Assembly: GCA_964444705.1 (NCBI GenBank)
Contig: CAYUHX010000001.1
Location: 17,055 to 81,054 of the forward strand
DNA from: an uncultured Gammaproteobacteria bacterium
GTDB lineage: Bacteria > Patescibacteriota > Patescibacteriia > Magasanikbacterales > GWA2-37-8
Length of the DNA stretch: 64,000 nt
Direction: 5' to 3'
Shown: in pieces, positions 23,985-60,986 of the stretch
Position numbering within the stretch: position 1 is the first letter of the stretch
How the letters are laid out: each line of letters begins with the position of its first letter
Program-made: the position numbers and the translations under genes
Notes under the pieces: model-generated
Seen by the model: the letters and a program-made list of their open reading frames with translations, nothing else
Databases searched by the model: none
What the model was told of the DNA's origin: nothing

Positions 23985-24057
23985 GCGCCTGTAGCTCAGG
24001 GGTTAGAGCGCCACCCTTATAAGGTGGATGTCGATGGTTCAATTCCATCCAGGCGCA
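23985..24057 (+). tRNA. tRNA-Ile with anticodon UAU (TAT)
   Basis: Manual cloverleaf fold: 7-bp acceptor GCGCCTG/CAGGCGC, D-stem GCTC/GAGC, anticodon stem CCACC/GGTGG with loop CTTATAA (U33, anticodon TAT, A37), T-stem GATGG/CCATC with loop TTCAATT, discriminator A73. No CCA encoded. Candidate promoter TTGAAT-17-TAGACT about 60 nt upstream. Confidence 0.85.
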
Positions 24058-24083
24058 CATTTATTTTCTAATCACAGATTAAT

Positions 24084-31552: not shown

Positions 31553-34330
31553 CTATAAATACTTTGCGGTCCAACCTTTTTTGCGAGAGATAAGATCAGC
31601 CGGCGTACCAAAATCAACAATTTCACCACCACTCTCGCCTCCTTCAGGGCCAAGATCAATTACCCAATCACTGGAACGAATCATCTCCACATTATGCTCA
31701 ATCACAAGAACGCTATTACCTTTGTTCACCAAAGCATTAAGCACCTGGAGTAAGCGTTTAATATCTTCAAAGTGCAAACCTGTAGTAGGCTCATCCAGAA
31801 TATAAAGCGTTTTACCAGTAGAATGGCGCGCTAATTCTTGAGCAAGCTTGATACGCTGTGCCTCACCGCCTGAAAGGGTTGTAGCAGGTTGGCCAAGCTC
31901 AATATACCCCAAACCTACTTCACGGAGCACATTAAGCTTATCTGCAATCGCCGGAATATCACAAAAAAATTTAAACGCTTCTTCGACAGTCATCTTGAGC
32001 ACGTCGGCAATATGTTTGTTGTGATAATGCACTTCCAGAGCTTCTCGATTATACCGCCACCCACCACACTCATTACACTCCACATATACATCCGCCAAAA
32101 ATTGCATGGGAATACGAATATATCCATCACCACTACACGCTTCACATCGCCCACCACCCTTTACATTAAAACTAAATTTACCTGCATCATACGCACGCAT
32201 TCGTGCTTCTGGCAAAGACGCAAACAGATCTCGAATCAAATTAAAGATACCCGTATAAGTAGCCGGATTCGAACGTGGTGTGCGGCCAATCGGTGATTGA
32301 TCGATGGTAATCACCTTATCAATATGCGACAACCCCTGAATACTTTTGTGCGCCCCTGGCTCTTCTTTGGCGCGATAAAAATACTTAGCTAAGGCTTTAC
32401 TTAAAATATCGATAATTAATGTCGATTTACCCGATCCCGACACACCCGTAACACACACTAATCGACCAAGCGGAATATCGACATCAATATTTTTAAGGTT
32501 ATGAGCCGAAGCACCAGTAATCACAATTGACTTCCCCGTTCCTTTACGCACGACACGTTTTATAACCCCAATATTAGCTCGTCCAAAAAGATAGTCTGCC
32601 GTTAAAGAATCAGTTGATTTTTTAAACTCTTTAAGAGTGCCCTGTGCAATCACTTGTCCGCCATATACCCCGGCCCCTGGCCCCACATCAACCAAATAAT
32701 CGGCGGCGAGCATCATGGTGGCATCGTGCTCAACCACGATAACGGTATTACCCAAATCACGAAGATATTTAAGCGTTTCAATTAATTTTTGATTATCACG
32801 TGGGTGTAAACCAACCGATGGTTCGTCGAGCACATACACAATACCACTCAATCCCGAAGAGAGTTGCGTTGCCAAACGCACGCGAGTCACCTCACCGCCC
32901 GACAATGTATTCATGGCGCGATCAAGATTTAAATACCCTAAGCCTACACGCTCTAAATTTTCTAACCGCGGCACGATTTCACGAATAATCAAATCTGCCA
33001 CTTTTGAACTTTTTATTTCGCCTGTCAACACTCGTTTGACATCTTCCACATTCATCGCAGAAAAAGCCGAGATAGTATAATCTCCTAAACGTACGGCCAA
33101 CGACTCAGCCTTAAGACGTTTTCCTTGGCACACAGAACAAATTTTTTCTCGCATGTACTGCTCAATTTCTTTGCGCACATACTCAGAATTGGTTTCAAGG
33201 TGTTTGCTCATGAGATCGGGGATGACACCTACAAAACCAGTTTTCTTACCTTCAACGTCATACCATTCTTCGCCACTGCCATACAAAATGACATTCAAAA
33301 TTTTTGGTGATAAATCAACCACTGGAGTGTTGAGCGAAAAATTAAATCGATCGGCCACCGCTGCAAGAAGTTTGGTGTAAAAACTATGATTGCCGGTAAT
33401 ACGAGTCCAAGGCTGGATCGCACCTTCGGCTAAAGTAAGCCGTGCGTTTGGAATAACCAAACTCGCGTCAACCTCCATCGTCACCCCAAGACCAGTGCAA
33501 CGTGTGCACGCGCCATAGGGACTATTAAAACTAAAACTGCGCATATCAACCGGCGCCATGGTGCGACCACATTTTAAACAAATTCCCATGGTTGAACACA
33601 ATTTGTTTTTTTCTTCAGCCGAGAGCATCACCACCCCATTCGCAAGGTCAAGCGCACTTTCAATAAGCTTAGTAGGGTCTTGTTTTTTAATATCAGTAAT
33701 AGTGCCAATGAGTATCTCTACCGTGTAGAGGACATCTTTCTCAAACTGAAAATCAAGCAAATCGTTAATTTTAAAACGATTACCATTGAGACGCAACCAT
33801 TCAAACCCCGATTTTTCAATTCGCTCAAGTAATGATTTTTTTTCTATTTTTCCCTCGCGAATAAGAGGTGCATACACAGAAACTTCACCACTTTTACGGG
33901 CAAAACGACGTAATTCTTCCACAATTTCTCCACTCGTTTTCACCTCAACCGCCAAATGACATTCGGGGCAATACTGCTCACCCACGCGGGCAAAAAGCAA
34001 ACGCAAAAGATCATAAATCTCGGTTACGGTGCCCACGGTTGAACGTGGATTTTGCGTTGACATCTTTTGATCAATGGCGATAGTTGGCGATAAACCTTCA
34101 ATCGAATCGGCATCTGGTTTGTCTTGGGTTTCCATGAATTGTCGCGCATACGACGACATTGACTCCGCATAACGCCGCTGCCCTTCGGCATAAATAGTAT
34201 CAAACGCAAGACTCGATTTTCCTGATCCAGATAAACCAGTGATCACCACCAATTTATGCTTAGGAATTTCAATATCTACATTCTTTAAATTATGAACCCT
34301 GGCGCCACGAATTTTAATAGTGTCTGACAT
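31553..34330 (-). CDS. uvrA: excinuclease ABC subunit A (paralog 1, 925 aa)
   Basis: N-terminus [50 protein letters not shown]. Two ABC modules (second Walker [11 protein letters not shown]). Zn-finger cysteines. Confidence 0.92.
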   Translation of the reverse strand: MSDTIKIRGARVHNLKNVDIEIPKHKLVVITGLSGSGKSSLAFDTIYAEGQRRYAESMSSYARQFMETQDKPDADSIEGLSPTIAIDQKMSTQNPRSTVGTVTEIYDLLRLLFARVGEQYCPECHLAVEVKTSGEIVEELRRFARKSGEVSVYAPLIREGKIEKKSLLERIEKSGFEWLRLNGNRFKINDLLDFQFEKDVLYTVEILIGTITDIKKQDPTKLIESALDLANGVVMLSAEEKNKLCSTMGICLKCGRTMAPVDMRSFSFNSPYGACTRCTGLGVTMEVDASLVIPNARLTLAEGAIQPWTRITGNHSFYTKLLAAVADRFNFSLNTPVVDLSPKILNVILYGSGEEWYDVEGKKTGFVGVIPDLMSKHLETNSEYVRKEIEQYMREKICSVCQGKRLKAESLAVRLGDYTISAFSAMNVEDVKRVLTGEIKSSKVADLIIREIVPRLENLERVGLGYLNLDRAMNTLSGGEVTRVRLATQLSSGLSGIVYVLDEPSVGLHPRDNQKLIETLKYLRDLGNTVIVVEHDATMMLAADYLVDVGPGAGVYGGQVIAQGTLKEFKKSTDSLTADYLFGRANIGVIKRVVRKGTGKSIVITGASAHNLKNIDVDIPLGRLVCVTGVSGSGKSTLIIDILSKALAKYFYRAKEEPGAHKSIQGLSHIDKVITIDQSPIGRTPRSNPATYTGIFNLIRDLFASLPEARMRAYDAGKFSFNVKGGGRCEACSGDGYIRIPMQFLADVYVECNECGGWRYNREALEVHYHNKHIADVLKMTVEEAFKFFCDIPAIADKLNVLREVGLGYIELGQPATTLSGGEAQRIKLAQELARHSTGKTLYILDEPTTGLHFEDIKRLLQVLNALVNKGNSVLVIEHNVEMIRSSDWVIDLGPEGGESGGEIVDFGTPADLISRKKGWTAKYL

Positions 34331-34352: not shown

Positions 34353-35798
34353 CTATTTGGAAATATTAAAACGTTTAAAATAAACTTGACGATGCTCTTC
34401 TCCACCAACAGTGGGAATATCTTTTATAGACGCAGCCTCGATATTGAGCGGAATTCCTTTTTTTAACTCTTCGACACTAAAAAAATAAGATTGATTAATA
34501 TCATATTTGTGCGTATCAAAAAATCCCCGATTTAAAGCCGTTCCATCACCCAAATCAACTCCATCTTTGCCAATATAATGAACTTGCACCGCACCCGCAT
34601 AAGTCTCATTCATTCCAAGTTTGAGCACAAAACCTCTAAATTTTTCTTTTCCACCGATACAATGTATGGTTGGTAGATTTAAATCTGCATCTGAGGCTTG
34701 CACCGTAAAAACCTGTGTTTTACCATCTGCAAGTGTCTGTAATTTTGCACTGGAATTTTCAACCATTGATACACCACTTTCACCTTCAACACACACCGCA
34801 TACAACCCCTCCACCGAACTTACTGACGGATTATTCCACTCTCGAGTTAAAAAATCAGGAAAAAAATCCTTAACAAAAGAATTGTGTGTAATAGTTCCAA
34901 TAATATTACCTTTCTTGCACAAATACTTCTTTTCATTAGGATCGGAAACGCAGATTGGTTTCTTGCCCCCTTCATCATCACACCAATTTCCCCAACAGGT
35001 GGCACCACCGCCCTGTTTCACAAAAAAACGCTTACCGCAATAAAAATTACGAGCATTGCTTTTTTCTGGAGGAACTTTGGTTTCATCTTTGAAGGTAATG
35101 TCGAACTTTGTATCTTTACCTGCCGGTTTGACCGGATTCTGTTGGTCGTCAACTCCCGAAGCAAGAGCAAAGCTTTTATCATTTTTTATTTCATCCCCCG
35201 CATCAGCACAAAATTTTGGCAACATTTTTATAGACCTCACCACATACACCGACGGCAAACGCAACTGCACGAGCGCAGGGTTGAGGGTGTTCAAAATAAA
35301 ATATGACAAAAAAACAATAAAAAGTCCTGTCACTGCACCAACAATTTTCTTTTTAGCCCCAGAAATAACCTCAGTATTACCACCCGAAGTTGTCCATTGA
35401 ATTCCCGCTAGCATGATAATGATGGTGGCCAAAATTGGCGCCACACCAATTGCATATTTATATCCAAGCTGAATGAATTCACCAATATTTTGAAATTTAT
35501 TTTTTCCAAAAAAAGTTATCGCCGTTTTACTTTGCCCGGCCGGCAAACATTTACCCCATTCTTTACCCACGCACGGCTCTTCGCCCTGAATCCAGCCATC
35601 TTTTGACTCTGCCTCATTAACAAGAGGATCTTGTGCTCGACGATATTCAGCACAATCCTTTTGTTTCCAACAAAGCGGATTAAATTCAGGAATAACTGTT
35701 TCGTTTGCTGCAACACAGACCGACCACGACCCAACCAAAGCCACCATCACACACACGCCGAATAAAAATTGTTTCCAAAAATTAAATGTTGACTTCAT
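34353..35798 (-). CDS. Cys-rich polytopic envelope protein with a TrbC/VirB2-pilin-like two-helix hairpin (hypothetical)
   Basis: N-terminal TM. Two Cys-containing extracytoplasmic domains (about 13 Cys). Internal hairpin GVAPILATIIIMLAGIQWTTSGGNTEVISGAKKKIVGAVTGLFIVFLSYFIL resembles the conjugative-pilin hydrophobic hairpin. Start at the second Met to avoid overlap with dsbA. Confidence 0.6.
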   Translation of the reverse strand: MKSTFNFWKQFLFGVCVMVALVGSWSVCVAANETVIPEFNPLCWKQKDCAEYRRAQDPLVNEAESKDGWIQGEEPCVGKEWGKCLPAGQSKTAITFFGKNKFQNIGEFIQLGYKYAIGVAPILATIIIMLAGIQWTTSGGNTEVISGAKKKIVGAVTGLFIVFLSYFILNTLNPALVQLRLPSVYVVRSIKMLPKFCADAGDEIKNDKSFALASGVDDQQNPVKPAGKDTKFDITFKDETKVPPEKSNARNFYCGKRFFVKQGGGATCWGNWCDDEGGKKPICVSDPNEKKYLCKKGNIIGTITHNSFVKDFFPDFLTREWNNPSVSSVEGLYAVCVEGESGVSMVENSSAKLQTLADGKTQVFTVQASDADLNLPTIHCIGGKEKFRGFVLKLGMNETYAGAVQVHYIGKDGVDLGDGTALNRGFFDTHKYDINQSYFFSVEELKKGIPLNIEAASIKDIPTVGGEEHRQVYFKRFNISK

Positions 35799-35799
35799 A

Positions 35800-36567
35800 T
35801 TATTTTGAAGAAAGAAATCGATCCCATAATTCAAACGGAATCACACCTTCAACCCTCTCGCCATTAATAAAAAAAGTAGGCGTCCCCCGAACACCAAAAC
35901 GCAAGCCATCGGCATAATCACGATTAATTGCCACCGCTGTAGCTGGCGTAGAAAGACACGCGTTCAATTTGTTTTTATCGAGGCGTGTATTTTTTACTAA
36001 TTCATTAATTTCTGCCTCACCCCAACTACTAGTAAAAAAAGTATCTTGAGAGGCGAAGAAAAAATCATACACGGGCCAAAAAAGATTTTGAGCTTTAGCA
36101 CATTGCCCAACTTCGGCCAACTGCGTTGCTCCTGGGTGCAATGATTCAACCGGAAAATTTCTGAACACAAAACGTACTTTCCCGGGGTATTTTTGCAACA
36201 CCTGGGCCACAATTGGGACTGCTAATTTACAATTGGGACATTTAAAATCTATAAACTCCACCACCGTAATCGGTGCGTCAGCCTGGCCAAAAACTAAAAA
36301 ATCCCCTTGTTCCAAATCTTTCCTTTCAGCTGCCGAAAGTACTCCATTTTGTGATACCGGTCCAGCGGCGGCACTAAACCGACCGCCCGATCCTTCCAAA
36401 GTGATTAAGTCACCCTGTTTTATCTGCCGCAGATACGACAAAGTAATATAACCAAACACAGTCAGCATGAAAATGATAGCTCCGCCTACCACAAGAGAGG
36501 TAATACCCCACCATTTTTTATACCATGGCTTTAAAATCACGGCGACATCCATACCAATTACCCTCAC
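35800..36567 (-). CDS. membrane-anchored DsbA-like thiol:disulfide oxidoreductase
   Basis: Thioredoxin fold with CPNC active site (FIDFKCPNCKLAVP) and cis-Pro region GTPTFFING. N-terminal TM anchor. Confidence 0.8.
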   Translation of the reverse strand: MRVIGMDVAVILKPWYKKWWGITSLVVGGAIIFMLTVFGYITLSYLRQIKQGDLITLEGSGGRFSAAAGPVSQNGVLSAAERKDLEQGDFLVFGQADAPITVVEFIDFKCPNCKLAVPIVAQVLQKYPGKVRFVFRNFPVESLHPGATQLAEVGQCAKAQNLFWPVYDFFFASQDTFFTSSWGEAEINELVKNTRLDKNKLNACLSTPATAVAINRDYADGLRFGVRGTPTFFINGERVEGVIPFELWDRFLSSK

Positions 36568-42591: not shown

Positions 42592-43845
42592 CTAACGCTT
42601 TATTTTTCTCTTTGAACGATTAAAGGTAATTGCAAAACGATGTGCTTCATCACGCACACGAATGAGCGCCTCGCGATGGTGCGACACCCACGCCACGAGC
42701 GCCGGCTCCACACTCCCCAAAATAATATCGTTACGCTTTCGCTCTTTACCTTTAGCCAAACCTACTATGGGAATATCGACGTTTTTTGAACTAAGCACTT
42801 CTTTGGCACGATTCACCTGCGGTCGACCACCATCAATTAAAAAAAGAGTTGGCAACGGCCAATCAGCGTGTGCTAAACGACGATTCAACACCTCAGCTAA
42901 ACAATCTACATCACTCTGCCCCACTACTGTTTTAATGGTAAATTTTCGATAGGCTGCTTTAATTGGGCCATGCTCATCAGCAACCACCAAACTACCTACC
43001 TTGTCAGTGTCGCCCAAATTGGAAATATCATATCCTTCAATGCGATAATGATCTGCTTCATCGTTTGTCCCCGCGTGCTCTCTAAAAAATTCTTGATTTA
43101 AGAGAGCGACATCTTGAATACGATACAATGATTTTGATTGATCGCGCAGGCGCGCTGCTTCTTCAAAACGAAATTCTTTGGCTGCCAGCTTCATTTTATT
43201 TTCCCACTCTCGCACCAACTTCTTTTTTTCACCCTGTAAAAACAGCACCAGCGGCCGAATTACTTTTAACGCATAGTCGCGAGGACTAATTTCACCCGTA
43301 CAGACGCCCAGACACTCTTCCATCTGTCGATAGAGACAGGGCTTTAACGAAAGAGGTCGGCAACTCGAAAAACGAAATAATCGGCGAAGTAACTTCATGG
43401 TGGCCTTGGTATTGAGGCCAGGATACGGCCCGAACACATACTTGAAACCAGGCGGCACCTTTCCTTCTTCATGTGAAAGAAGACGCAGCTCGCGCTCACG
43501 AATAGTTTTCACCTGCGGATACAGCTCTTTCGTAATAATAATATAATTCCAACTTTTATCATCTTTACCAAGTACGTTGTATTTGGGTTGATTTTTTTTG
43601 ATGTACAACGCCTCTAAAATAATCGCCTCAAGCACTGATTCGGTTTCTTTCCACTCAATACGTGCCACCTCATGAATCATTTCTTCAATCGGCCGCGGCG
43701 TGCGTAGCCCACGAAAATAGCTTTGCACCCGGCTTTTAAGCGACGTTGCTTTACCCACATACACCAGCTCACCATCTTCAGAATAATACAAATAAATACC
43801 TGGGGCATCGGGTAATTTTTTAAAAACAGAATCAAATTTGTGCAT
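42592..43845 (-). CDS. uvrC: excinuclease ABC subunit C, compact form lacking the C-terminal (HhH)2 domain (417 aa)
   Basis: GIY-YIG N-terminus LPDAPGIYLYYSEDGELVYVGKATSLKSRVQSYF. UVR domain FRFEEAARLRDQ. RNase-H-like endonuclease domain RIEGYDISNLGDTDKVGSLVV...LIDGGRPQ. The frame ends before any helix-hairpin-helix pair. Confidence 0.85.
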   Translation of the reverse strand: MHKFDSVFKKLPDAPGIYLYYSEDGELVYVGKATSLKSRVQSYFRGLRTPRPIEEMIHEVARIEWKETESVLEAIILEALYIKKNQPKYNVLGKDDKSWNYIIITKELYPQVKTIRERELRLLSHEEGKVPPGFKYVFGPYPGLNTKATMKLLRRLFRFSSCRPLSLKPCLYRQMEECLGVCTGEISPRDYALKVIRPLVLFLQGEKKKLVREWENKMKLAAKEFRFEEAARLRDQSKSLYRIQDVALLNQEFFREHAGTNDEADHYRIEGYDISNLGDTDKVGSLVVADEHGPIKAAYRKFTIKTVVGQSDVDCLAEVLNRRLAHADWPLPTLFLIDGGRPQVNRAKEVLSSKNVDIPIVGLAKGKERKRNDIILGSVEPALVAWVSHHREALIRVRDEAHRFAITFNRSKRKIKR

Positions 43846-44082
43846 ACAATTTATGAGGTGACGGCGTCTTATTTATTTAATATTACGCCAAAAAAAAGCC
43901 CTTCGCAACCACTCCACGCATTTTTTCACTTTTAAAATTATCATAACTTCTATTTTTATATACAGATATCACCATGCTATCCTTGACAAGATTGAAAATA
44001 CATAGTATACTCACCCGTCAAGCGTAATTGCTTGATTGACTATTTTAAAGCTCGTTTACAACGGCCATTTAGATTACTACTC

Positions 44083-44211
44083 CTGATATCACCGTCGATA
44101 ATCAGAAATCAAAGAGACAAGAAACCGACATCCTGCTAGAATTTTCTACCTACTTACCTGTTTCGGATCTCTCCACACATGTTCATCGGGTTATCGACCG
44201 TGATATCAGAG
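44083..44211. repeat. 19-nt inverted repeat pair (CTGATATCACCGTCGATAA / TTATCGACCGTGATATCAG, 1 mismatch) bracketing about 90 nt of noncoding DNA
   Basis: Seen directly. A third half-site copy GATATCACC lies at about 43965. No ORF in the region. Confidence 0.4.
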
Positions 44212-44270: not shown

Positions 44271-44375
44271 CCCGACGATGGTAATCTGCGCTTGAATTTG
44301 AAAGGAACAAGGATCAAGGAACAAAGAGCAATTTGTCCTTTTTCCTTCACTCGAACTCACATTACCATCGTCGGG
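44271..44375 (+). promoter_or_regulatory. 15-bp perfect inverted repeat (CCCGACGATGGTAAT ... ATTACCATCGTCGGG) enclosing a 75-nt purine-rich spacer, at the low-GC/high-GC junction just upstream of the high-GC lipoprotein gene
   Basis: Seen directly. The right arm ends 40 nt before the ATG, and a strong SD GAGGAGG follows. Confidence 0.4.
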
Positions 44376-44415
44376 CACTTGCGCCCGTCGATCCCTACGT
44401 CCTGAGGAGGACCGC

Positions 44416-45105
44416 ATGAACCGCATCCGTCGCAACTCGTTCCTGTCCCGCTACCTGCTGGCCGCCAGCCTGGCCGCCAGCCCGCTGACCACCGGCTGCG
44501 GCACGCCCGAGCCCACCACCCCGGTGGCACCGCAGCCCAGCACCCTGGCCAAGGTGAGCCGGAAGATCCCCGCCGACGGGGAGACCACGGGCCGGAGCCC
44601 GCTGGTGGGGGCGCTGCTCGACCGGCAGGTCACCGTCGGCGTCGCCAGCTTCACCATCACCCCCCACGCCGACGGCACGGCCAACGCCGAGGCCGGCGCC
44701 GTCTTCTGGAAGCCCAATGCGGAGCTGAAGGCCGGCCAGCGGTACGAGTGGACCATGGTCTTCAACGACCGCGGCTACGAGACGACCCTGAAGGGCAACT
44801 TCACCGTGGCCAAGGACCCCCCGCCCGCGCCGATGGGCCCCCTGTGGGGGCTCTCTGAGGGCACCCTGGGTGGGGCCACCAAGCAGTTCACCTGCAGCGG
44901 TACCCACGCCGGCCAGTACTACCTGACGGTCACCAAGGCCGGTGACGGCGCGCTGATCTGGGGCCAGAAGGTGGGCGGCTTCGGGCAGGAGTTCTACTAC
45001 ATCAACTCCCAGGACCTGGCGGCCACGTACCTCCAGACGGGCATCGTCTCGGGGATCACCTTCAGCGCCGAGGGCCTGCAGGAGGGTACCACCACCTGCA
45101 AGTAG
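44416..45105 (+). CDS. lipoprotein of unknown function encoded in a high-GC (about 70%) island
   Basis: SD GAGGAGG 6 nt upstream of the ATG. Signal peptide plus lipobox LAASLAASPLTTGC. GC3-rich codon usage unlike neighbouring genes. Downstream hairpin terminator at 45276-45312. Confidence 0.7.
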   Translation: MNRIRRNSFLSRYLLAASLAASPLTTGCGTPEPTTPVAPQPSTLAKVSRKIPADGETTGRSPLVGALLDRQVTVGVASFTITPHADGTANAEAGAVFWKPNAELKAGQRYEWTMVFNDRGYETTLKGNFTVAKDPPPAPMGPLWGLSEGTLGGATKQFTCSGTHAGQYYLTVTKAGDGALIWGQKVGGFGQEFYYINSQDLAATYLQTGIVSGITFSAEGLQEGTTTCK

Positions 45106-45275
45106 CGGCGCTGCCGCCCGACCCGCGGCGGCGCACACCGGCCATCAAATCGCTTGATCCACCGCTCCGTTCCGCAGCCCCCGCTCGCCTAAACCTGCTC
45201 GCCCACTTCGGTGCGAACAGCGGTGCGAGGGGGGCCTGCATCTGTTGAATAAAAGAACTGTCTTTTGTTCATAGA

Positions 45276-45312
45276 ACACACAATCCCGATACCCCTCGGG
45301 ATTTTGTGTTTT
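45276..45312 (+). terminator. rho-independent terminator closing the high-GC island
   Basis: ACACACAATCCCGAtaccccTCGGGATTTTGTGTTTT. Confidence 0.6.
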
Positions 45313-45498
45313 AAATAATTTTTTAACTAAATTTTTTTCTTTACACCCACATGGCGGAATTTGGGCTTGGGCTCAAATTTTTTCCTTTATCCTTTTTCTT
45401 TTTTCCTTCACCCACCTAATAGCCAAACCCCTTCAATTACGCTATACTATTTCTATTCCCGCACTGATTTTACCTCACTCACCTACTCTCCATTTCAT

Positions 45499-46455
45499 AT
45501 GCCTACTTTTCTCGAAGATGTAAAAGTGCCTGCCTCGCAACAATCATCTCAAAAAAAAGGGCCAGAAAAATTTGAACATTACATCAATGCCGGTGGTGGC
45601 CTCAGCAATAAAAATCTTAAATACGCACTGTGGTTTACTGAGAACAAATTGCTACTCTATCGTCTCTTGCTCGGCTTCATTGGTTTTTGGTGTGTATTAT
45701 TTTGGGGCTACACTCTTTTTAATGTAGGTGATTATCTCATTTTTGGATTACGTGCCGATCAAAATCTGGCTCGTGAAATGTCGTACTTTCCTAACTACAC
45801 CCTCATCAACACTCGCCTCTCACCTGAACTACCAAAAATAATAAGCACTCAAGCATTGCCAAGCGGCACTGATAAATACGACCTCGTTGCGGAAGTGGCC
45901 AACACCAACGAGCGTTTCCTTGTTACTTTTGATTATTATTTCAATTTGAACAATGGCAAAAGTGAAAAACAGCATGGTTTTCTTCTCCCAGGTGAAAACA
46001 AATTTCTCACCCTGCTTGGAGTGAAAAACGCTGATTTTTCTGGCGGCGACGTGCAAATTAGTTTTGATAATTTTGTCTGGAAACGCGTGAATGCGCATGA
46101 AATAAAAAACACCACACAGTGGCAAAGCGAACGCTTAAACTTTACCACCGATAATTTTGCACTCATCCGCACCACTAACCCCGACTCTGGCGCACACGCT
46201 GATCGCGTTACATTCAAACTCACGAACAACAGCCCCTATTCATTCAAGGCGCCTTTTTTTTACATCGCCCTCTATTTTCAACAAAGTTTGGTGGGCATTT
46301 TGCCGCTCGAGCTCACCAGCTTTGGCTCGCTCGAAACCAAAGCAATTGATGTACGGGTCTTTACTCCCAACATTAATGTGAGTGATGTGGTGGTTTATCC
46401 ACTCATCAATGTGTATGATTCCGAAGAATACGTAAAAGCCACGGCTAGCTCTTAA
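45499..46455 (+). CDS. hypothetical single-pass membrane protein with extracytoplasmic domain (start at MPTFLEDV)
   Basis: TM LLLYRLLLGFIGFWCVLFWGYTLF, then about 230 aa of beta-rich sequence. Immediately upstream of the SEDS gene, with the same orientation. Confidence 0.5.
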   Translation: MPTFLEDVKVPASQQSSQKKGPEKFEHYINAGGGLSNKNLKYALWFTENKLLLYRLLLGFIGFWCVLFWGYTLFNVGDYLIFGLRADQNLAREMSYFPNYTLINTRLSPELPKIISTQALPSGTDKYDLVAEVANTNERFLVTFDYYFNLNNGKSEKQHGFLLPGENKFLTLLGVKNADFSGGDVQISFDNFVWKRVNAHEIKNTTQWQSERLNFTTDNFALIRTTNPDSGAHADRVTFKLTNNSPYSFKAPFFYIALYFQQSLVGILPLELTSFGSLETKAIDVRVFTPNINVSDVVVYPLINVYDSEEYVKATASS

Positions 46456-50910: not shown

Positions 50911-51022
50911 ATAGGCACCTTGCAATGGAAGATATGTATTTTTCTGAGGGCGGTTGGAGTTTTGAATAAACCCCAACCGCCACGATGAATGGCATGCCGA
51001 CCCTCCGAAGAGAAGCCGGCGC

Positions 51023-51406
51023 TCACGAGGCGGCCTCCATGCTGCTGGTGGTAACGACCGGCGGCGCGGCCTCGTGGCGAACAGGCAGATGAGCGATGGC
51101 CGGCGGCGCGGCGGCGCGCCGCTTAGCCTCGTCGCGAAGGAAGTTGTCGGCCTGCACCCAGAGCGGTACGCCGATCATAAGGCCAACCCAGAGGCCGAGA
51201 CCACACCAGAACGCCCCAGTCATGGTGGCGTCGATGCCTAGCCCCAACTCGGGAACAATTTCGTTGTCGAGCTGGGTAGCTCGAATGAGATAGGCAAGCG
51301 CCCAGAGGACAAGTACCCACCCGATGACGGTAATGAACTGACCGATCGTCCTTTGGATCTTGGCCCGCGAACCGTTCTCGATCCGGATCATGTCTTTGAT
51401 CTTCAT
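51023..51406 (-). CDS. small two-TM membrane protein encoded in a high-GC (about 60%) island
   Basis: Hydrophobic helices VIGWVLVLWALAYLI and GAFWCGLGLWVGLMIGVPLW. Ala/Pro-rich tail. Composition differs sharply from its flanks. Confidence 0.5.
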   Translation of the reverse strand: MKIKDMIRIENGSRAKIQRTIGQFITVIGWVLVLWALAYLIRATQLDNEIVPELGLGIDATMTGAFWCGLGLWVGLMIGVPLWVQADNFLRDEAKRRAAAPPAIAHLPVRHEAAPPVVTTSSMEAAS

Positions 51407-51536: not shown

Positions 51537-53303
51537 TTATGCGCCAAAGAAATTACTCAATCGTTTCAATATTGTAGGCTTAGTTCGATTAAGATATTCT
51601 TGATCCTTGGCATGCTGATATAACTTAGCCGTTAAAAGAGAAAAAAATTGCGGCACATCCACTGTTTTATCTTTTTTATTGATAATTGGAAGATTACTCC
51701 AGTCGGCATCATATAACCCTAATTTCTTTCCAAGTTTCTCGGCTTTCACACCACCCGCTGCCAACACCTTAAGATTTTCCACAATGTTGTGTGAATAAAT
51801 GCTCGCTTCTGGCACCACCTTAACTACCGCGTCGGTAAGGACATGTTCGAGGTGACGACCGTTTCCCCAACGATATATCACCGAAGTATTTTTCTCTGTT
51901 GGTGCGACCGCCGTCTTTTTTGTCATCTCAGATGTTGAAGGTTGTGAATCGACTTGATCTCTGTTGCTTTGTAGCAACTCTTTTGCTCTCTTAACCTCTT
52001 GCGCAATATCGTTATCGCCTTTAAAAAGACCAGAATTTTTAAGAATGGCTTTAAACGAATCTGGGGCGTCTTCCTGTGGTGCCAAGGCTTTTTTTATTCC
52101 TTTCACAGCGTGTACCACGGCTGGATTTTCGGTTACTTGGCCTCGATGCTCATACGCAAATACGCCCGCAAATAAACCGGCAACCAGGCCAGCAGTTTGT
52201 TGCAGTCGTTTAAACACACCCTGCTTCTTTCGTGCGCGTTCTCGTTGTTGATAAACCGAAATGGCCGCTCGCTGAATCTGCGCAATATTTTCTTCATTAT
52301 CAAGCAATATCGCGTCTGGAACAGGCGCAGTAACATTCTCTTCTTTGACAACACTTACTTCTTGTTCTTTAGTCGGTTCTTCGAAAGGAGCCTCAATAAC
52401 AATATTTTCTACCTCAAGCGCAGCGAGCTCTTTAACGTCTTGGTTCGCAATTTCTGTCGCTGCCGGTGGCAACTGATCATTATCTACCAACCCAACCGAA
52501 GCGTGCTGTTCGTCTAAGAAAGACACTGCTGGCTCCCTTGCCAAAATGTTGGCTTCTTTTTCGGCAAAATTCTTAAGAGTTCCCTCAGCCTGGCTCATTT
52601 CTTCTTCAGCGGCAACCTGTTGAATTGTTTCATAGGCAATGTGTACTAGCCGACGCTGAACAGCCTGCACCAGCTCAGCAAATTTAGTTGGGTGCATAGT
52701 TCTTGCCAAGGCTCGCTGAACACCATCGGCTTCAGTATAAAGTCGACTAACAACTGCCGAAGCTGAACCGGTCTTTACCGACACTTGTTGAAAAAGATCA
52801 ATGAATTGGCGCACGATATCAAGGTGATGGCCAAGCTCAGTAGTGATATCAGTTCGCAATCGTGCATCAACTGCACTCAAGGCTTTAGAAAGTTTCATTT
52901 TGTCTGTGCCGCTTTGGTTATGTTTCTTTTTAAGAAGTGTTATTTCTGCTGCATAGGCACTCACCAATTCACTCACACCCTGCACTAGTTCCGCTGCATA
53001 ACGCAATTGAGTGGCATCAACAACTTTGTCTTGTTGCAATGCTTTTATCAATCGTTCTGGGCCTGAGAACAGTGCCGCAAAATATTCTTGATGTGCTCGT
53101 GGCGCATCAAGATATTCTTCTTGCAACTGCGGACCCTTAATCGGACGGGCAATTAAAACAATTTCTTTACGCACCTGGGCCAAGCTTTCTGCAATGGCTT
53201 TTAATGTATAGTTTTTTTCTTCTCTTTTTAAATCAACTACCTCACCAAGAAACCTGTTACGGGATTCAGAAATAGGCATATACATTGAATATGTTTTACA
53301 CAA
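51537..53303 (-). CDS. hypothetical alpha-helical protein (588 aa; alternative start at 53279)
   Basis: Long open frame with one hydrophobic segment (TAGLVAGLFAGVFAY). No recognizable domain. Confidence 0.5.
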   Translation of the reverse strand: MCKTYSMYMPISESRNRFLGEVVDLKREEKNYTLKAIAESLAQVRKEIVLIARPIKGPQLQEEYLDAPRAHQEYFAALFSGPERLIKALQQDKVVDATQLRYAAELVQGVSELVSAYAAEITLLKKKHNQSGTDKMKLSKALSAVDARLRTDITTELGHHLDIVRQFIDLFQQVSVKTGSASAVVSRLYTEADGVQRALARTMHPTKFAELVQAVQRRLVHIAYETIQQVAAEEEMSQAEGTLKNFAEKEANILAREPAVSFLDEQHASVGLVDNDQLPPAATEIANQDVKELAALEVENIVIEAPFEEPTKEQEVSVVKEENVTAPVPDAILLDNEENIAQIQRAAISVYQQRERARKKQGVFKRLQQTAGLVAGLFAGVFAYEHRGQVTENPAVVHAVKGIKKALAPQEDAPDSFKAILKNSGLFKGDNDIAQEVKRAKELLQSNRDQVDSQPSTSEMTKKTAVAPTEKNTSVIYRWGNGRHLEHVLTDAVVKVVPEASIYSHNIVENLKVLAAGGVKAEKLGKKLGLYDADWSNLPIINKKDKTVDVPQFFSLLTAKLYQHAKDQEYLNRTKPTILKRLSNFFGA

Positions 53304-53308
53304 ATTTT

Positions 53309-54073
53309 TTAACTACGCGCAATCGTCTGATCTTCATAAGCTCCAAGATCATCGGATGCATACATATCACGCAGCATAGTATACGGCGCTGCAACAAGCT
53401 CGTCGATCGACATCGCATCAATCTGACGTTTTATTTTTTCTTTTTGCAAAGCTTCAATCAATGTTATGTAGTGCAATCGCCACTCACGAATCACATCAGG
53501 AAACGAAAATAAATCATTTTTTTTACCAAAATCTTCAGGCGAATAACTACTAATATCCTTTTGGAGCGCATTCGCATGACGCATCATTTTTTGCCACGCC
53601 CCGTGAGATAAAGATTTCAGACTGCTCTCTGAAACAGTTTGAAGTAACGCTTTGGTATAACGAACGGCGTTATCAAGCACGTGTTTTCGAAACAACAATC
53701 GCCGCGTATGGATCTCATGCTCTTTTTGAGTAACCACTTTTTCATTTTCCGTTTTGAGAGCAGATTGTCTTGCTGCAAAAAGCGTTTCAAGCTCGCGTAA
53801 CTGGTTGGCAACTACGCGGTGGGTGCCTTTGATATGCTGCAGAAGTTCTCTTGTTTGGTGAGGGGTAATTCCTTCTTTAGCGAACACATGCCTGCTCACC
53901 ATGTCTTCAAGCGGCCAAATAACGACGATACAGTCATCTTTATCTTCTTGTGACACTCTGGCAGTTTGAATTATTCTTTTTAAATCGCCTAATTTTTCTG
54001 CTAACGAAACATTTTTTTCAGCTGCGGCAATTGGTTCTGAATGTTCTCTTGTTTGAGCGTGAACATTGCGCAT
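53309..54073 (-). CDS. hypothetical alpha-helical protein (254 aa)
   Basis: Open frame tightly spaced with the upstream gene on the same strand. Confidence 0.5.
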   Translation of the reverse strand: MRNVHAQTREHSEPIAAAEKNVSLAEKLGDLKRIIQTARVSQEDKDDCIVVIWPLEDMVSRHVFAKEGITPHQTRELLQHIKGTHRVVANQLRELETLFAARQSALKTENEKVVTQKEHEIHTRRLLFRKHVLDNAVRYTKALLQTVSESSLKSLSHGAWQKMMRHANALQKDISSYSPEDFGKKNDLFSFPDVIREWRLHYITLIEALQKEKIKRQIDAMSIDELVAAPYTMLRDMYASDDLGAYEDQTIARS

Positions 54074-54491
54074 GTCACACTGATTATTATTCTATGTACA
54101 AAAAGTATAGCACAAAAAACCCAATCAAACACGGCCCGAGCGATATCCCAACTTCTCCATCTCTCTTTTTAAAAAGAGAGGTAGAAAAGCTGACCGACGG
54201 CACCCGAAACCAACTGCTGTTGGTGGGTGCCGTCGCTGTGTGTACTCCTAACAAACAAAAACGAAATGGATCAGACCACTGTAGCCTGCTCCGCGATCAG
54301 GGCGCGGAGTTCTGCGGCGTCTTTGGCCGCGGCGCGGATCTGGAGCTCCTCGAGCCGCTGGTGCCGCCGCCGCGTCGACCGTCGCACGAAGTTCTCCCAA
54401 TATCGCGGAAGCCGCTCGGGCGGCTTGGGCGCCGCTGGCGCCGCCGCTTTCGGCAACACCCGGTTGAGCCAACGGAGGTTGACCCAAAGGA

Positions 54492-56240
54492 TCACTGCCG
54501 ACACCAGGCACAACCCCACCAGGAGGAGGAAGAACCAGTGGTGGGGCCAGGGCTTCCAGAACCTCCCGAGCGCGGCGCGAGCTTGCTGACCAGCGCCAGC
54601 CCCATGGGGGACAGGCACAGCTCAGCCAGGGTGACGACGAAGTAGCTGCTGATGAGCCAGAGCGGGCTCACTCGGCCAGAGTTGCCACCGGCGAGCGAAC
54701 CCACCACCATGATCAGGTACGAGATGGCCGTAAGCACCATCCCAATGCCGATCTTGGCTGCGGTGGACGGCTGACGGCCGCGCTTCTCGAGGAAGACTCC
54801 GAAGAACCAGTTGAGAACTGGCGTCAGAGTCACGACGAAAAACGGGTTGACGCTATTGTAAACAATAGCGCCGGGCTTCCAGCCGAGGATGCTCTCGCGG
54901 GTGTGGTCGTCGGCCCAGAAGACCAAAACGCTGCCGTTCTGGTGAAACGCCGCCCAGAAAAAAATGACAATCACACAAATAACACTGATCGCGAGGATCC
55001 GTAGACCCTCGACGAGCGGCGGCTCGCGCGCGTCTTCGTATTCCTTGGGCAAGGGGACCCCAAGGACGGCCGCGACACTCGATCTCTGATCCGCCAGCTT
55101 GAACCAGCGGTAGCACGCGGCGGCGATGACGAAGCCGACCATCATGCCGACACCGGCCGCCGAGAATGCCGCCGCCCACCCGTAGTGCGCCACCATGTAG
55201 TCGGCAACAAAGGGGCTAAAAAATGCCCCAATGTTGACGCCCATGTAGAAGACGCTGAAGGCAGCGTCCCGCCGCGAATCGCCGGCGGGATACATGTTCC
55301 CCAGCATCGTCCCGATGCTGGGCTTGAACATGCCGTTCCCCAAGACGATGAGAATGATCGCCGTCCAGAGAAACTTGGGAGGAGCGCCGAGCGCGAAGTA
55401 GCCCACGGCCATGAGGGCCGCGCCGAAGAGCACCGCCTTCCGATAGCCCAGCCACCGGTCGGCGATGATGCCCCCGAAGAACGGGGCGAAATAGGTCAAC
55501 GCGATGAAGCTCCCATACGTACTCGAGGCTTCGGCCGCCGAGTACCCCAAGTGCTTCTTGAGGTACAAGGTGAAAATGGCCAGCATCAGGTAGTAGCCGA
55601 AGCGCTCCCACATCTCGACCATAAAAAACGCGTAGAGCTGACGCGGGTGCCGGGGACCAGAGGAGCGGCGGGTCGCGAGCTTGCTGAGGAGGCGAGCGAT
55701 CGGACGGAATGGCCAGTTCCGCCTGGTCACGGCCCAGTCATCGGCTAAGAGCCAACTCCAATACCGGAGCTCCGCCATGAGCTCGCCGATCCAGGGGTGC
55801 GCCTTGAGGAAGCGCGCCCGGCGGTAAGCCGCGATGCGAGCCTGCTGCGCCCTCCTCTCGGCGCGCTCCGCCTGCCGAATGGCGTTGATGCGGGCCGCGC
55901 CATCACGGCGGATCTGCTGGGCACGCTCGAACGCAGCGAAACGCGCGAGAAGCCGCTGCCACGGGGGCGACACGCCCGAGTGGACCAGCGCGTACGCCGC
56001 CCGCCCGGCGGTGAAAAACCAGAAGATGGCGGGCGCGACGAAGTTGAAAAACTCACGGGCCGGCGGGGCAAGCCGCTGCCGAACGGCGTCCACGGTCGCG
56101 AGCACGCGCCGTTTGACGCTGGCGAACGTCGCGGCCACCACGGTGAAAAATGCGATGATCTTGAGCACCACCCGCTCCTCGATGAGAAGCTGCGGAGCCG
56201 TCATAGTTGCCTTGGCCTGGATCGGACGCTTTCTCTTCAT
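54492..56240 (-). CDS. POT/PTR2-family proton-dependent oligopeptide transporter in a high-GC (about 65%) island, with an about 190-aa N-terminal extension and a probable 3' frameshift (continuation likely in frame 54271-54618)
   Basis: PTR2 signature FFMVEMWERFGYYLMLAIFTLYL, GGIIADRWLGYRKAVLFGAALMAVGYFALG and LAELCLSPMGLALVSKLAP. After KLAP the frame degenerates (SGGSGSPGPTTGSSSSWW) while the overlapping -frame reads a plausible TM (HHWFFLLLVGLCLVSAVILW). Confidence 0.7.
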   Translation of the reverse strand: MKRKRPIQAKATMTAPQLLIEERVVLKIIAFFTVVAATFASVKRRVLATVDAVRQRLAPPAREFFNFVAPAIFWFFTAGRAAYALVHSGVSPPWQRLLARFAAFERAQQIRRDGAARINAIRQAERAERRAQQARIAAYRRARFLKAHPWIGELMAELRYWSWLLADDWAVTRRNWPFRPIARLLSKLATRRSSGPRHPRQLYAFFMVEMWERFGYYLMLAIFTLYLKKHLGYSAAEASSTYGSFIALTYFAPFFGGIIADRWLGYRKAVLFGAALMAVGYFALGAPPKFLWTAIILIVLGNGMFKPSIGTMLGNMYPAGDSRRDAAFSVFYMGVNIGAFFSPFVADYMVAHYGWAAAFSAAGVGMMVGFVIAAACYRWFKLADQRSSVAAVLGVPLPKEYEDAREPPLVEGLRILAISVICVIVIFFWAAFHQNGSVLVFWADDHTRESILGWKPGAIVYNSVNPFFVVTLTPVLNWFFGVFLEKRGRQPSTAAKIGIGMVLTAISYLIMVVGSLAGGNSGRVSPLWLISSYFVVTLAELCLSPMGLALVSKLAPRSGGSGSPGPTTGSSSSWWGCAWCRQ

Positions 56241-56587: not shown

Positions 56588-57562
56588 CTACTCATCACGC
56601 AGCACTTTCCTCAGTCGATCTGCTTCGTCCTCATTCGCTTGAGTTGTTTCTAAAAGATCGAGATATTCTTTCCACACGGTGGCTCGCTCTTTATTTACCC
56701 TATTGCGTAATCGATTCCCAAAAGAAATAAATGCCGATGGTTCGTTCAACTCTTTTGCAGCAACACCCAAGCGAAGCAGCAACTGGTCTTTTAAAAAACC
56801 TAATTGTGAATTATTTTGTGCAATAACCTCCTCAAGCTGGCTAATTTGTGACTCTACAACATCACGAGGGGTTGACCTGCCCTCAACCTTTAAATCATGA
56901 TTTTTCGAAAGCGGTTCATCCCAGGCTGATCGGGTCGCACTTACGTGCGATGCTTTGACTAACGATTGACGCTCAAGCGCAGCATTTTCTCGCTGCAAAC
57001 GCTGCATATTCGCCTCTTCTTTTTCTGCGTTGCGCTTAATTTCCGCTTCCAATTCTGCGCGCTGCCGTTTTTCAATCACTTCATTTCTTCTTTTTTCCAT
57101 TAACTCATCCATTGCCACCGCATTTTGTTTTCTATACGCCCGCCTCTCTTCTTCTGTTAAATTCGGTGGAAAATCAATGCCATCAACTGGCTCCGTCAGT
57201 TGCGTTGCTTCATTCGTTAAATCTGGCACACCATCACTACTTTCATCAACTGGCGACACCAATTTCGTCTCAGCACCCAAAACAACTTCCGGAGAAAACA
57301 TATCTGTAATCCGAACTGGGGAAACGCCACTTGGAAACGAGGGATCTAATCTAGCGCGACCCTCGACATCACGCGATTTTTGTACCCTCGTCCGCAACTC
57401 TTCTAAACGAATCAGATCTTCTGGCTTCAAATTACTTTGCGCAAATGAAAGTGGTATATCTAGCCACTCTACCAGATTTGCATCTGTTAACCTTCCATTT
57501 TCTTCAAAATGATTAACTAATTTTTCTGGCACATGCCCCCCTGATGAAACATTTTCTCCCAT
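56588..57562 (-). CDS. hypothetical coiled-coil protein (324 aa)
   Basis: Glu/Arg-rich heptad-like stretch (EERRAYRKQNAVAMDELMEKRRNEVIEKRQRAELEAEIKRNAEKEEANMQRLQRENAALERQ). Confidence 0.5.
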   Translation of the reverse strand: MGENVSSGGHVPEKLVNHFEENGRLTDANLVEWLDIPLSFAQSNLKPEDLIRLEELRTRVQKSRDVEGRARLDPSFPSGVSPVRITDMFSPEVVLGAETKLVSPVDESSDGVPDLTNEATQLTEPVDGIDFPPNLTEEERRAYRKQNAVAMDELMEKRRNEVIEKRQRAELEAEIKRNAEKEEANMQRLQRENAALERQSLVKASHVSATRSAWDEPLSKNHDLKVEGRSTPRDVVESQISQLEEVIAQNNSQLGFLKDQLLLRLGVAAKELNEPSAFISFGNRLRNRVNKERATVWKEYLDLLETTQANEDEADRLRKVLRDE

Positions 57563-57731
57563 ATAACTATGTAAGAAATAAAAACATGTTTATGCTAACA
57601 TAAATAAACGCAAAGTCAATTAAGGTTTGACAAAAAAAATACACCGAGTTAAGCTAATTTTACTTCTTCTCTACGAAAGATGAGGCCCCGCCGTGGGCTT
57701 TTTTAGATTCGTACGACCTACTTATATTTTT

Positions 57732-60494: not shown

Positions 60495-60915
60495 CGCTCA
60501 TAACAGGTAATCGCCCCGACGTAAAGTCGGGGAGGAAAGTCCGAACACCCTACCCTCCGCCTCGTGCGGAGATTGAAAAAGGTAGTGGGTAACACCCACC
60601 CTTTGTTTCGTGAGGAGCAAGGCGGGACAGTGGCACAGAGACAATACTAACCAGTGCTTGGCACTGGCGAAAGGTGAAAAGTGTGAGGAGGTAAAAAATC
60701 TTCGGATTTCTTGCCACCCCACTCCTCGGCTGGCAACAGCCGAGTGTGCTAAACCCTACCTGGTGCAAGAGCAGCCCCAAATTCCCTTTATGGAATTTGT
60801 CGGAAAAGTTCGCTCGCACAGATTCCGTCAGCAATGCCGGAGCCAGAGAAATGATTACCACTCCCCCATCTAAAAAATGGTGGAGCACAAAATTCGGCTT
60901 ATCGTTATGAGCATC
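60495..60915 (+). ncRNA. rnpB: RNase P RNA (bacterial type A-like)
   Basis: Conserved P4 5' strand GGAGGAAAGTCCGAACAC and 3' strand ACAAAATTCGGCTTATCG, with compensatory CCGAA/TTCGG changes relative to the common CCGGG/CCCGG. P1 closing helix GCTCATAAC...GTTATGAGC. GGTAACACCC (P10-P12 region) present. Only short spurious ORFs overlap. Confidence 0.85.
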
Positions 60916-60986
60916 CTAAAACCTCTCTTCCTCAGAGAGGTTTTAGTTTGACGATGAACCGCTTTAGGCATAAAATAGCTCGTACT

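Follow-up and report, generated by a model that had tools for sequence, protein, structure and literature searches.

How does a gene in which almost every codon ends in G or C come to lie among core genes of a bacterium whose own DNA is far poorer in these bases? The question is raised by a 64,000-nucleotide stretch of contig CAYUHX010000001.1 (assembly GCA_964444705.1; hereafter the window), in which a short segment rich in guanine plus cytosine (GC), carrying a single predicted lipoprotein gene, lies beside uvrC. Three features carry the argument:

44369–45239, plus strand: high-GC islet, 871 nt, GC 0.71, placed by GC windows and a change-point fit
44416–45105, plus strand: lipoprotein gene, 229 amino acids (aa), GC at third codon positions (GC3) 0.965
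44404–44410, plus strand: Shine-Dalgarno (SD) sequence GAGGAGG, 5 nt 5′ of the ATG and within the GC-rich DNA

The reading that we prefer, and to which we give a probability of roughly 0.6, is that a single gene for a surface lipoprotein was recently acquired from a very GC-rich donor, that it entered by a competence-type route, and that it settled in an integrase-free hot spot for horizontal gene transfer (HGT).

A sharply bounded islet of foreign composition

Across the islet, GC in 400-nt windows runs from 0.42 to 0.72 and 0.69 and back to 0.41; with windows of 40 nt, the rise falls near 44360–44380 and the drop near 45240. A maximum-likelihood fit with two change points returned 44369–45239 (871 nt). 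Within these limits GC is 0.71, compared with 0.38 in the 400 nt on either side. Because nucleotides 44369–44375 pair within a long hairpin whose right arm abuts the GC switch, the biological left edge of the islet is probably 44376. When compared to 1148 background windows of 871 nt (mean GC 0.437, standard deviation 0.029, maximum 0.519), the islet stands out with z = +9.3, and its tetranucleotide profile correlates with that of the host background at r = −0.19. The correlation with 68–70% GC contigs is 0.89–0.90; note that 871 nt is too short for a phylum-level donor call from codon or tetranucleotide usage and that these high-GC comparison contigs are from Myxococcota. The noncoding parts of the islet are likewise GC-rich (0.68 in the 5′ part and 0.73 in the 3′ part). 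In the open reading frame (ORF) at 44416–45105, GC at the three codon positions is 0.60, 0.55 and 0.965, with the correct codon periodicity, and just 8 of the 229 codons have A or T in third place; for host genes in the window, GC3 lies at 0.23–0.54.

An initial annotation made from the letters of the window had described a GC jump at about 44376 and a drop at about 45245, a single gene with GC3-saturated codons, a strong SD of its own, flanking genes of host-like composition, and unameliorated foreign DNA from a high-GC source. Each of these descriptions was borne out, that of the flanking genes by the composition of uvrC, hyp364, ftsW and uvrB, and that of the foreign DNA by the figures above together with a lineage-wide pattern of similar islets. 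We regard a foreign origin of the islet as very probable.

The same figures bear on the donor and on time. The GC3 of the lipoprotein gene exceeds that of every gene on two Myxococcota contigs of 68–70% GC (maximum 0.94), which argues for a donor above about 70% GC and for essentially no amelioration. In two related loci, L012 and L063, islet genes still have GC3 values of 0.79–0.91 after the identity of host fourfold sites has fallen to 0.67; amelioration thus appears to be gradual, and a GC3 of 0.965 would mean that little time has elapsed.

The islet gene is predicted to encode a lipoprotein

Consistent with the signal peptide and LTTGC lipobox that had been proposed for the product, its N-terminus, MNRIRRNSFLSRYLLAASLAASPLTTG followed by cysteine, fits a PROSITE-style lipoprotein signal pattern. 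The signal peptide comprises residues 1–27, with a charged n-region (MNRIRRN), an h-region of Ala, Leu and Ser (YLLAASLAASPL) and a lipobox LTTG|C, whose cysteine, Cys28, is encoded at 44497–44499. Judged from these sequence features, the 229-aa product is likely to be a lipoprotein. The same pattern picks out many native low-GC ORFs of the lineage with lipoboxes of the LAGAGC type, which suggests that the host processes lipoproteins; neither lgt nor lspA lies within the 64-kb window. A twin-arginine-like motif, RRNSFL, is present, yet no TAT-signal family from Pfam or NCBIfam was matched (E ≤ 0.1 or 1), and a search of PDB sequences gave a non-significant resemblance to the N-terminus of the lipoprotein MntC.

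The mature protein is predicted to consist of a Pro/Thr-rich linker and two β-rich modules (residues ~50–132 and ~133–229) that are weakly FN3-like. A phmmer search of 1.84 billion representatives returned a single meaningful match, P0001 (E = 4e-13); two further matches were disregarded as low-complexity or repeat. P0001 is a C1-family peptidase with seven repeats of ~97 aa, and the members of its cluster are named Dehalococcoidia. The match covers residues ~109–189 of the lipoprotein and recurs on each repeat, and a profile of the repeats aligns to residues 133–188 with an hhalign probability of 85%. Compared with Pfam fn3, the P0001 repeats reach a whole-protein E of 2e-11, with no single stretch above threshold alone, and their matches to FN3 entries of the PDB are weak (E = 0.03–0.5). 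The lipoprotein had no direct match in Pfam, NCBIfam, PHROGs or PADLOC and nothing significant among PDB sequences. Nor was a relative found in a word-indexed search of 5.8 billion clustered proteins, in translated scans of JGI metagenome contigs, viral contigs and plasmids, or by tblastn in 80 Magasanikbacteria loci, where the nearest relative has 66% UvrC identity. The initial annotation had looked to such homology searches for the donor lineage; they returned none, their sole signal being the weak FN3-like repeats. From these alignments, the presence of two FN3-like β-sandwich modules after the Pro/Thr-rich linker is about an even bet, and a role as an adhesin or in host interaction is a tentative suggestion.

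Unrelated GC-rich genes gather beside uvrC in related genomes

The 80 related loci that we kept (1.23 Mb, all centred on uvrC) encode UvrC proteins with 48–66% identity to that of the window and come from genomes mostly titled Candidatus Magasanikbacteria or Patescibacteria; many third-party annotation records among them bear the generic label 'uncultured Gammaproteobacteria'. The host of the islet is a member of Candidatus Magasanikbacteria, which belongs to the candidate phyla radiation (CPR), with a genome of about 44% GC.

About 25 ORFs with GC3 > 0.70 occur in these loci, in hosts of 0.36–0.51 GC, along with many sharply bounded high-GC segments. The relatives' islets come from more than 20 metagenome-assembled genomes (MAGs) of many studies, with contig names (NODE_, k141_, scaffold) that point to different assembly pipelines. 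High-GC segments on the upstream (uvrB/uvrA) side of uvrC outnumber those downstream by 38 to 8 (46% expected; p = 4e-7), a count that takes fragments of one islet separately, so that the effective n is smaller, and that comes from uvrC-centred loci. In about 12 loci an islet lies within about 1.3 kb upstream of uvrC, and in the closest relatives the gap between uvrA and uvrC holds the following:

L004, 8739–9206: high-GC lipoprotein gene
L005 and L006, 9410–9874: high-GC lipoprotein gene
L007, 244–921: high-GC lipoprotein gene

These lipoproteins are unrelated to one another and to the window protein, with the exception of the pair in L005 and L006 (82% identity). Similarly, L012 and L063 have two small islet genes in common (88% and 64% identity). 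That orthologous islets share a slot in MAGs of different studies argues that islets are heritable components of these genomes. At the site upstream of uvrC, neither a motif nor a hairpin nor an att-like sequence was found to be common to the 12 loci with islets. Many islets in the lineage encode envelope proteins, and most islet proteins belong to no family; the lipoprotein of L007, which is the positional analogue of that in the window, is also an orphan and offers no clue to a donor. The uvrC-adjacent interval thus behaves as an integrase-free HGT hot spot that gathers unrelated foreign envelope genes. Some islet genes of the relatives encode other kinds of protein (L071, 3290–4258, with an EAD1 domain; L044, 21–479, with sigma-70 region 4).

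Two further islands in the window and the source of the DNA

Three GC-rich islands had been counted in the window, and we found the two others:

50971–51253, minus strand: second high-GC islet, part of a 127-aa membrane-protein ORF (51023–51406)
54284–56229, minus strand: third high-GC islet, POT/MFS peptide transporter gene (54492–56240) with a frameshifted C-terminal piece (54271–54618)

The lipoprotein islet is the most extreme of the three (T at third codon positions, T3, of 0.03 versus 0.14–0.17). In the second islet, GC is high (0.69) only in the last two-thirds of the 127-aa ORF and in the DNA on its 3′ side, the first ~50 codons being near host GC; this ORF may be chimeric or partly ameliorated. 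In many relatives the slot after p210 holds a native low-GC lipoprotein of ~150 aa (MRLRILPVI...LAGAGC).

The third islet is the one that has homologues. The best matches of the window POT are transporters of Myxococcota (Polyangia), with 57% identity and conserved synteny on contigs of uniformly 62–75% GC, and the POT gene is native in Myxococcota; a high-GC N-terminal extension of ~197 aa in the window POT was not found in the Myxococcota relatives. Similarity is lost past about residue 557 of the ORF at 54492–56240, and the C-terminal transmembrane region resumes in the overlapping ORF at 54271–54618, a split that marks the gene as a pseudogene or else stems from misassembly of GC-rich DNA. 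GC-rich POT-like genes (GC3 0.82–0.92) share the slot between uvrB and uvrA, on the opposite strand, in five Magasanikbacteria genomes, namely that of the window and these:

L002, 920–2392: POT-like gene
L004, 2513–4981: POT-like gene
L005, 2814–5213: POT-like gene
L009, 1718–3922: POT-like gene

The POT-like genes of the five genomes have 26–51% identity, and all synonymous sites are saturated. In a neighbour-joining tree the window and L002 proteins are not sisters: each is 57–61% identical to Myxococcota proteins and the two are 51% identical to one another. These relationships favour repeated acquisition or replacement in the slot, with an old acquisition kept GC-rich as the alternative. 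The lipoprotein and POT islets of the window differ in their codon preferences (CTG versus CTC; C at third positions 0.58 versus 0.45; T3 0.03 versus 0.14), and therefore probably differ in donor or in age.

These observations bear on the idea that the donor was the physical host of an episymbiotic cell, whether an actinobacterium, as the initial annotation had suggested, or alternatively a Myxococcota partner. Cultivated Patescibacteria are naturally competent epibionts on Actinobacteria (PMC10633639), a GC3 of 0.965 is compatible with a genome of more than 70% GC, an envelope protein is encoded here as in many islets of the lineage, and the POT proteins from the islets of the window and L002 fall among those of Myxococcota. 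We nevertheless consider this idea unlikely: the lipoprotein has no homologue in any Actinobacteria or other genome searched, the differing codon preferences suggest more than one donor, the tetranucleotide match was obtained with Myxococcota contigs as its only high-GC reference, and most detectable transfers occur within Patescibacteria (PMC12455944). For Actinobacteria in particular, the islet gene is an orphan and the only island with homologues is nearest to Myxococcota, so an actinobacterial donor is neither supported nor excluded.

Other explanations of the islet

Could the gene be an old, fast-evolving resident of the lineage that selection, biased repair or repeated replacement has kept GC-rich? 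A high-GC lipoprotein gene beside uvrC in the window, L004, L005/L006 and L007 would fit such a history, as would POT-like genes that keep their GC3 in five genomes despite saturated host synonymous sites. The uvrC-adjacent lipoproteins, however, share no detectable similarity outside the L005/L006 pair, and the closer kinship of the window and L002 POT proteins with Myxococcota than with one another favours separate acquisitions. Moreover, there is no known way in which single genes would be kept at a GC3 of 0.97 in a 44% GC genome, and codon selection would not explain the GC-rich noncoding ends of the islet. An old resident is on these grounds improbable.

We judge it quite improbable, too, that the gene is moron-like cargo of a mobile element or phage that has since been lost or has decayed. 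The islet is a single-gene unit with sharp edges, an SD and hairpins of its own and two unusual long hairpins at its left edge, and among the islet proteins of relatives one has a weak PHROG match and another an EAD1 domain, all of which such an origin might leave. The islet itself, however, lacks an integrase, a transposase and a tRNA target, has neither terminal inverted repeats nor an adjacent direct repeat, and its boundary motifs show no attC-like pairing; the lipoprotein has no PHROG or PADLOC match and no relative in the viral contigs or plasmids searched. None of the neighbouring genes encodes an integrase or transposase, and the sole tRNA gene in the window is that for tRNA-Ile (anticodon TAT) at 23985–24058. 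We also considered a 19-nt direct repeat (44332 and 45393) as a target-site duplication and rejected it as T-rich, low in complexity and not adjacent to the junctions.

An assembly chimera or binning contamination, with a high-GC segment of another organism spliced in, is unlikely, and we give it a very small probability. In its favour, the lipoprotein is on no other contig, and the sole independent contig with an identical uvrC (L001, Logan SRR13287419) stops at about 44022, some 350 nt short of the islet. Against it, every islet would require a pair of exact mis-joins, three such pairs within 12 kb, each enclosing a single intact gene together with an SD and 3′ hairpins, and host synteny continues on both sides within the 139-kb contig. 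Equivalent islets would also have had to arise in the MAGs of different assembly pipelines, and two pairs of islets have been passed down in an unchanged position while their sequences diverged (82% identity for L005/L006 and 88% for L012/L063).

The remaining possibility concerns the strand:

44395–45138, minus strand: antisense shadow ORF, 247 aa, GC at first codon positions (GC1) 0.95, GC3 0.62

That the real gene is this antisense ORF, which lies codon for codon opposite the lipoprotein ORF, is slightly longer (247 versus 229 aa) and is the one present (as P0129) in the public protein calls for the 139,214-bp source contig, from which the lipoprotein is absent, can be dismissed, because its GC1 of 0.95 and GC3 of 0.62 mirror the sense GC3 and show it to be a shadow ORF of the type common in high-GC DNA, because its product is low-complexity, rich in Arg, Gly and Ala and without start context, and because the sense ORF, unlike the antisense, has both an SD and a signal peptide as well as a homology match that is weak yet significant. 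The content of the public calls explains why a first homology search and an exact look-up gave no self-match. Gene callers trained on an AT-rich host can choose the wrong strand in such islets, as they did for the source contig, and similar mis-calls may hide other islet genes from protein databases; genes called in this way are overlooked by HGT surveys that depend on homology or on a donor.

Several observations weigh against the acquisition that we favour. No donor homologue turned up in any collection searched, so the foreign origin is argued from composition, and no relative exceeds 66% UvrC identity, so there is neither an empty site nor a phylogenetic date for the acquisition. The demonstration of competence comes from a lineage other than Magasanikbacteria. 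The sibling POT island is frameshifted, and hence not every islet is functional. In the lipobox, positions −3 and −2 are Thr instead of the canonical Leu-Ala/Ser; the FN3 link runs indirectly, through the repeats of P0001; and a single-sequence AlphaFold (AF2) model of the lipoprotein had a predicted local distance difference test score (pLDDT) of 37 and was unusable. The reduced effective n of the 38-to-8 count and the early end of the independent contig belong on the same side.

A proposed route of acquisition

We propose that the 871-nt segment came from an organism with a genome probably above 70% GC, too recently for its third codon positions to have drifted to the AT bias of the host. 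Environmental or partner DNA would have been taken up through natural competence; conservation of the Com genes extends across CPR, and Saccharibacteria have been shown to be competent (PMC10633639). Integration would have been illegitimate or associated with break repair, without mobile-element machinery. We put competence-mediated illegitimate integration at the hot spot at even odds. The product would be a secreted, lipid-anchored surface protein, for which adhesion or ligand binding on the CPR cell envelope seems the most likely function.

A wider proposal is that Magasanikbacteria continually import envelope genes (for lipoproteins, transporters and small proteins that are secreted or lie in the membrane) from very high-GC partners at the integrase-free uvrB-uvrA-uvrC hot spot. 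We think this unlikely; in a stronger variant, the POT and uvrC-adjacent lipoprotein slots would be refilled repeatedly by xenologous replacement. If continual import were true, strand-aware detection of GC3 outliers would be a practical tracer for the hosts of Magasanikbacteria, and Myxococcota would be the first host candidate, from the POT islets.

Proposed expression from host signals

The signals around the gene are these:

43983–44011, plus strand: sigma-70-like promoter candidate of host composition, TTGACA-17-TATACT, 11/12
44083–44209, no strand assigned: long hairpin 1, in the AT-rich leader, 24-nt arms, 79-nt spacer; minimum free energy (MFE) −41.3 kcal/mol, z = −5.2
44271–44375, no strand assigned: long hairpin 2, 25-nt arms with a 15-bp perfect core, 55-nt spacer; MFE −44.6 kcal/mol, z = −6.4
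45106–45239, plus strand: GC-rich 3′ untranslated region (3′UTR), GC 0.73, with hairpins at ~45105–45134 and ~45174–45239 and no T-tract
45272–45313, both strands: intrinsic terminator of host composition directly downstream of the islet, core stem 45282–45303 plus T-run, z = −6.9

The lipoprotein gene lacks a complete transcription unit of its own, having an SD and 3′ hairpins only. Because just 29 nt of GC-rich DNA lie upstream of the SD, the promoter must be in host DNA. From the arrangement of these signals, we infer that expression depends on a host promoter and a host terminator: transcription would start from the host-type promoter at 43983–44011, giving a leader of ~400 nt with the two long hairpins, and would end at the host-type terminator at 45282–45303, and translation would use the gene's own SD. 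The gene had been credited with a hairpin terminator of its own, a claim that holds in part; GC-rich 3′ hairpins are present, with folding of the 3′UTR barely more stable than that of shuffled sequences (z = −2.2), but they have no T-tract, and the canonical terminator lies in host DNA.

Hairpins like the two in the leader are rare in the window. An Rfam scan of the locus (E ≤ 1) assigned them to no known RNA family, and neither the leader nor the right flank is conserved at the DNA level among relatives; L070 has a comparable long hairpin beside the ribosome-binding site of its islet gene. The leader hairpins may be regulatory or insulating elements, or they may be fold-back scars of the break repair behind the rearrangement described below.

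In many islet genes (those of L007, L011, L018, L040, L070, L072 and L002, and the window POT gene), high GC begins 5–15 codons after an AT-rich, host-like start and SD. This delay could reflect selection for unstructured initiation or the capture of host translation starts. The lipoprotein gene of the window differs from these genes in that its SD is its own and GC-rich.

The islet lies at a rearrangement breakpoint

The islet is bordered by two host genes:

42592–43845, minus strand: uvrC, short 417-aa form, a core gene flanking the hot spot
45499–46455, plus strand: hyp364, a lineage-conserved hypothetical gene, 318 aa as publicly called, with ftsW next

In the relatives the hyp364-ftsW block shares the strand of uvrB-uvrA-uvrC and is found upstream of these genes, and the common order in the 80 loci is hyp364-ftsW-uvrB-p210-uvrA-uvrC-rsmE-prx-p129-L25-DUF3048, all on one strand, with gyrB upstream of hyp364. 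In the window, the block from hyp364 to uvrA is inverted relative to that from uvrC to DUF3048, and gyrB is elsewhere (15.6 kb). The islet thus sits exactly at a lineage-specific breakpoint, which corresponds to the ancestral gap between uvrA and uvrC. At the other edge of the rearranged block, an RNase P class A RNA (60495–60917) lies directly downstream of uvrA (57693–60407). A single inversion would predict an RNase P RNA upstream of hyp364 in relatives; it was not found there in six of them, gyrB being there instead, and we rejected that model. The rearrangement is more complex than one inversion.

A second UvrA-like paralogue of 925 aa is encoded at 31553–34330 (minus strand), and several related loci have paralogous uvrA matches too. 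Between the islets, three low-GC ORFs (588, 254 and 324 aa; 51537–54073 and 56588–57562, minus strand) have no Pfam match and no counterpart in the 80 loci, which argues that the interval between uvrB and uvrA also gathers novelties of host composition. Elsewhere in the window there are a large native surface protein of 2278 aa (4729–11565; Big_5, CarboxypepD_reg and PG_binding_1), a native 910-aa Laminin_G_3 protein (26628–29360) and a 493-aa T4SS-pilin-domain protein (34353–35834), a rich envelope repertoire that is consistent with a surface-interaction lifestyle.

Comparison with known systems

Compositionally atypical genomic islets that were acquired from elsewhere are reportedly accounted for by the amelioration framework of Lawrence and Ochman. 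The present islet resembles islets of that type in its sharp break in GC and codon usage, its gene-sized length, its absence from relatives and a GC3 far from host equilibrium. It differs in being a single gene without tRNA, integrase or direct repeats, in having a donor that is not identifiable in about 15 billion proteins, and in the extreme contrast between its GC3 of 0.965 and a host GC3 of about 0.4. A classical genomic island or integrative element was rejected, there being no integrase, transposase, tRNA or tmRNA target or flanking direct repeats. To our knowledge, neither hosts nor host-interaction proteins are known for almost all CPR lineages; a surface lipoprotein gene that is probably a recent arrival, together with a lineage-wide hot spot, supplies specific candidates for proteins of the interaction and might allow partners to be traced by composition.

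Closer parallels come from two surveys. Bacteria that are naturally transformable have an excess of hot spots between core genes that are free of mobile genetic elements (Oliveira, Touchon, Cury and Rocha 2017, PMC5635113). Like those hot spots, the intervals between uvrA and uvrC and between uvrB and uvrA hold differing transferred genes in the same core interval without mobility genes, in a lineage that belongs to a phylum with conserved competence genes. Unlike them, the recurrence here spans species- to family-level divergence instead of lying within a species, and the window site is also a rearrangement breakpoint. In groundwater Patescibacteria, HGT makes up as much as 13% of genome length and occurs mostly within the phylum (PMC12455944). 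That study, whose main text makes no mention of Magasanikbacteria, Myxococcota or lipoproteins, resembles ours in describing individually transferred genes and islands in CPR, and its MAG series nzgw is also among our related loci; unlike our approach, its methods require a donor, and orphan islets would escape them.

At the level of the gene and its product, two further systems invite comparison. Integron gene cassettes, like the islet, consist of a promoter-less single ORF with a structured 3′ region and a composition unlike that of the host; we rejected this identity because there is no integrase (intI), no cassette array and no R″/R′ attC core pair, and because the islets are isolated (the single GTTGAAT at the right edge is unpaired, none being present at the left). 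Surface lipoproteins with tandem Ig/FN3-like modules share with the predicted product a signal peptide, a lipobox Cys, a Pro/Thr-rich linker and β-rich modules, and differ from it in that here no module is matched directly in Pfam or NCBIfam and the function is putative. The islet, then, is HGT of a known kind, and what adds to its interest is that envelope genes of extreme GC recur around the uvr genes of Magasanikbacteria, that they are orphans and that they are mis-annotated.

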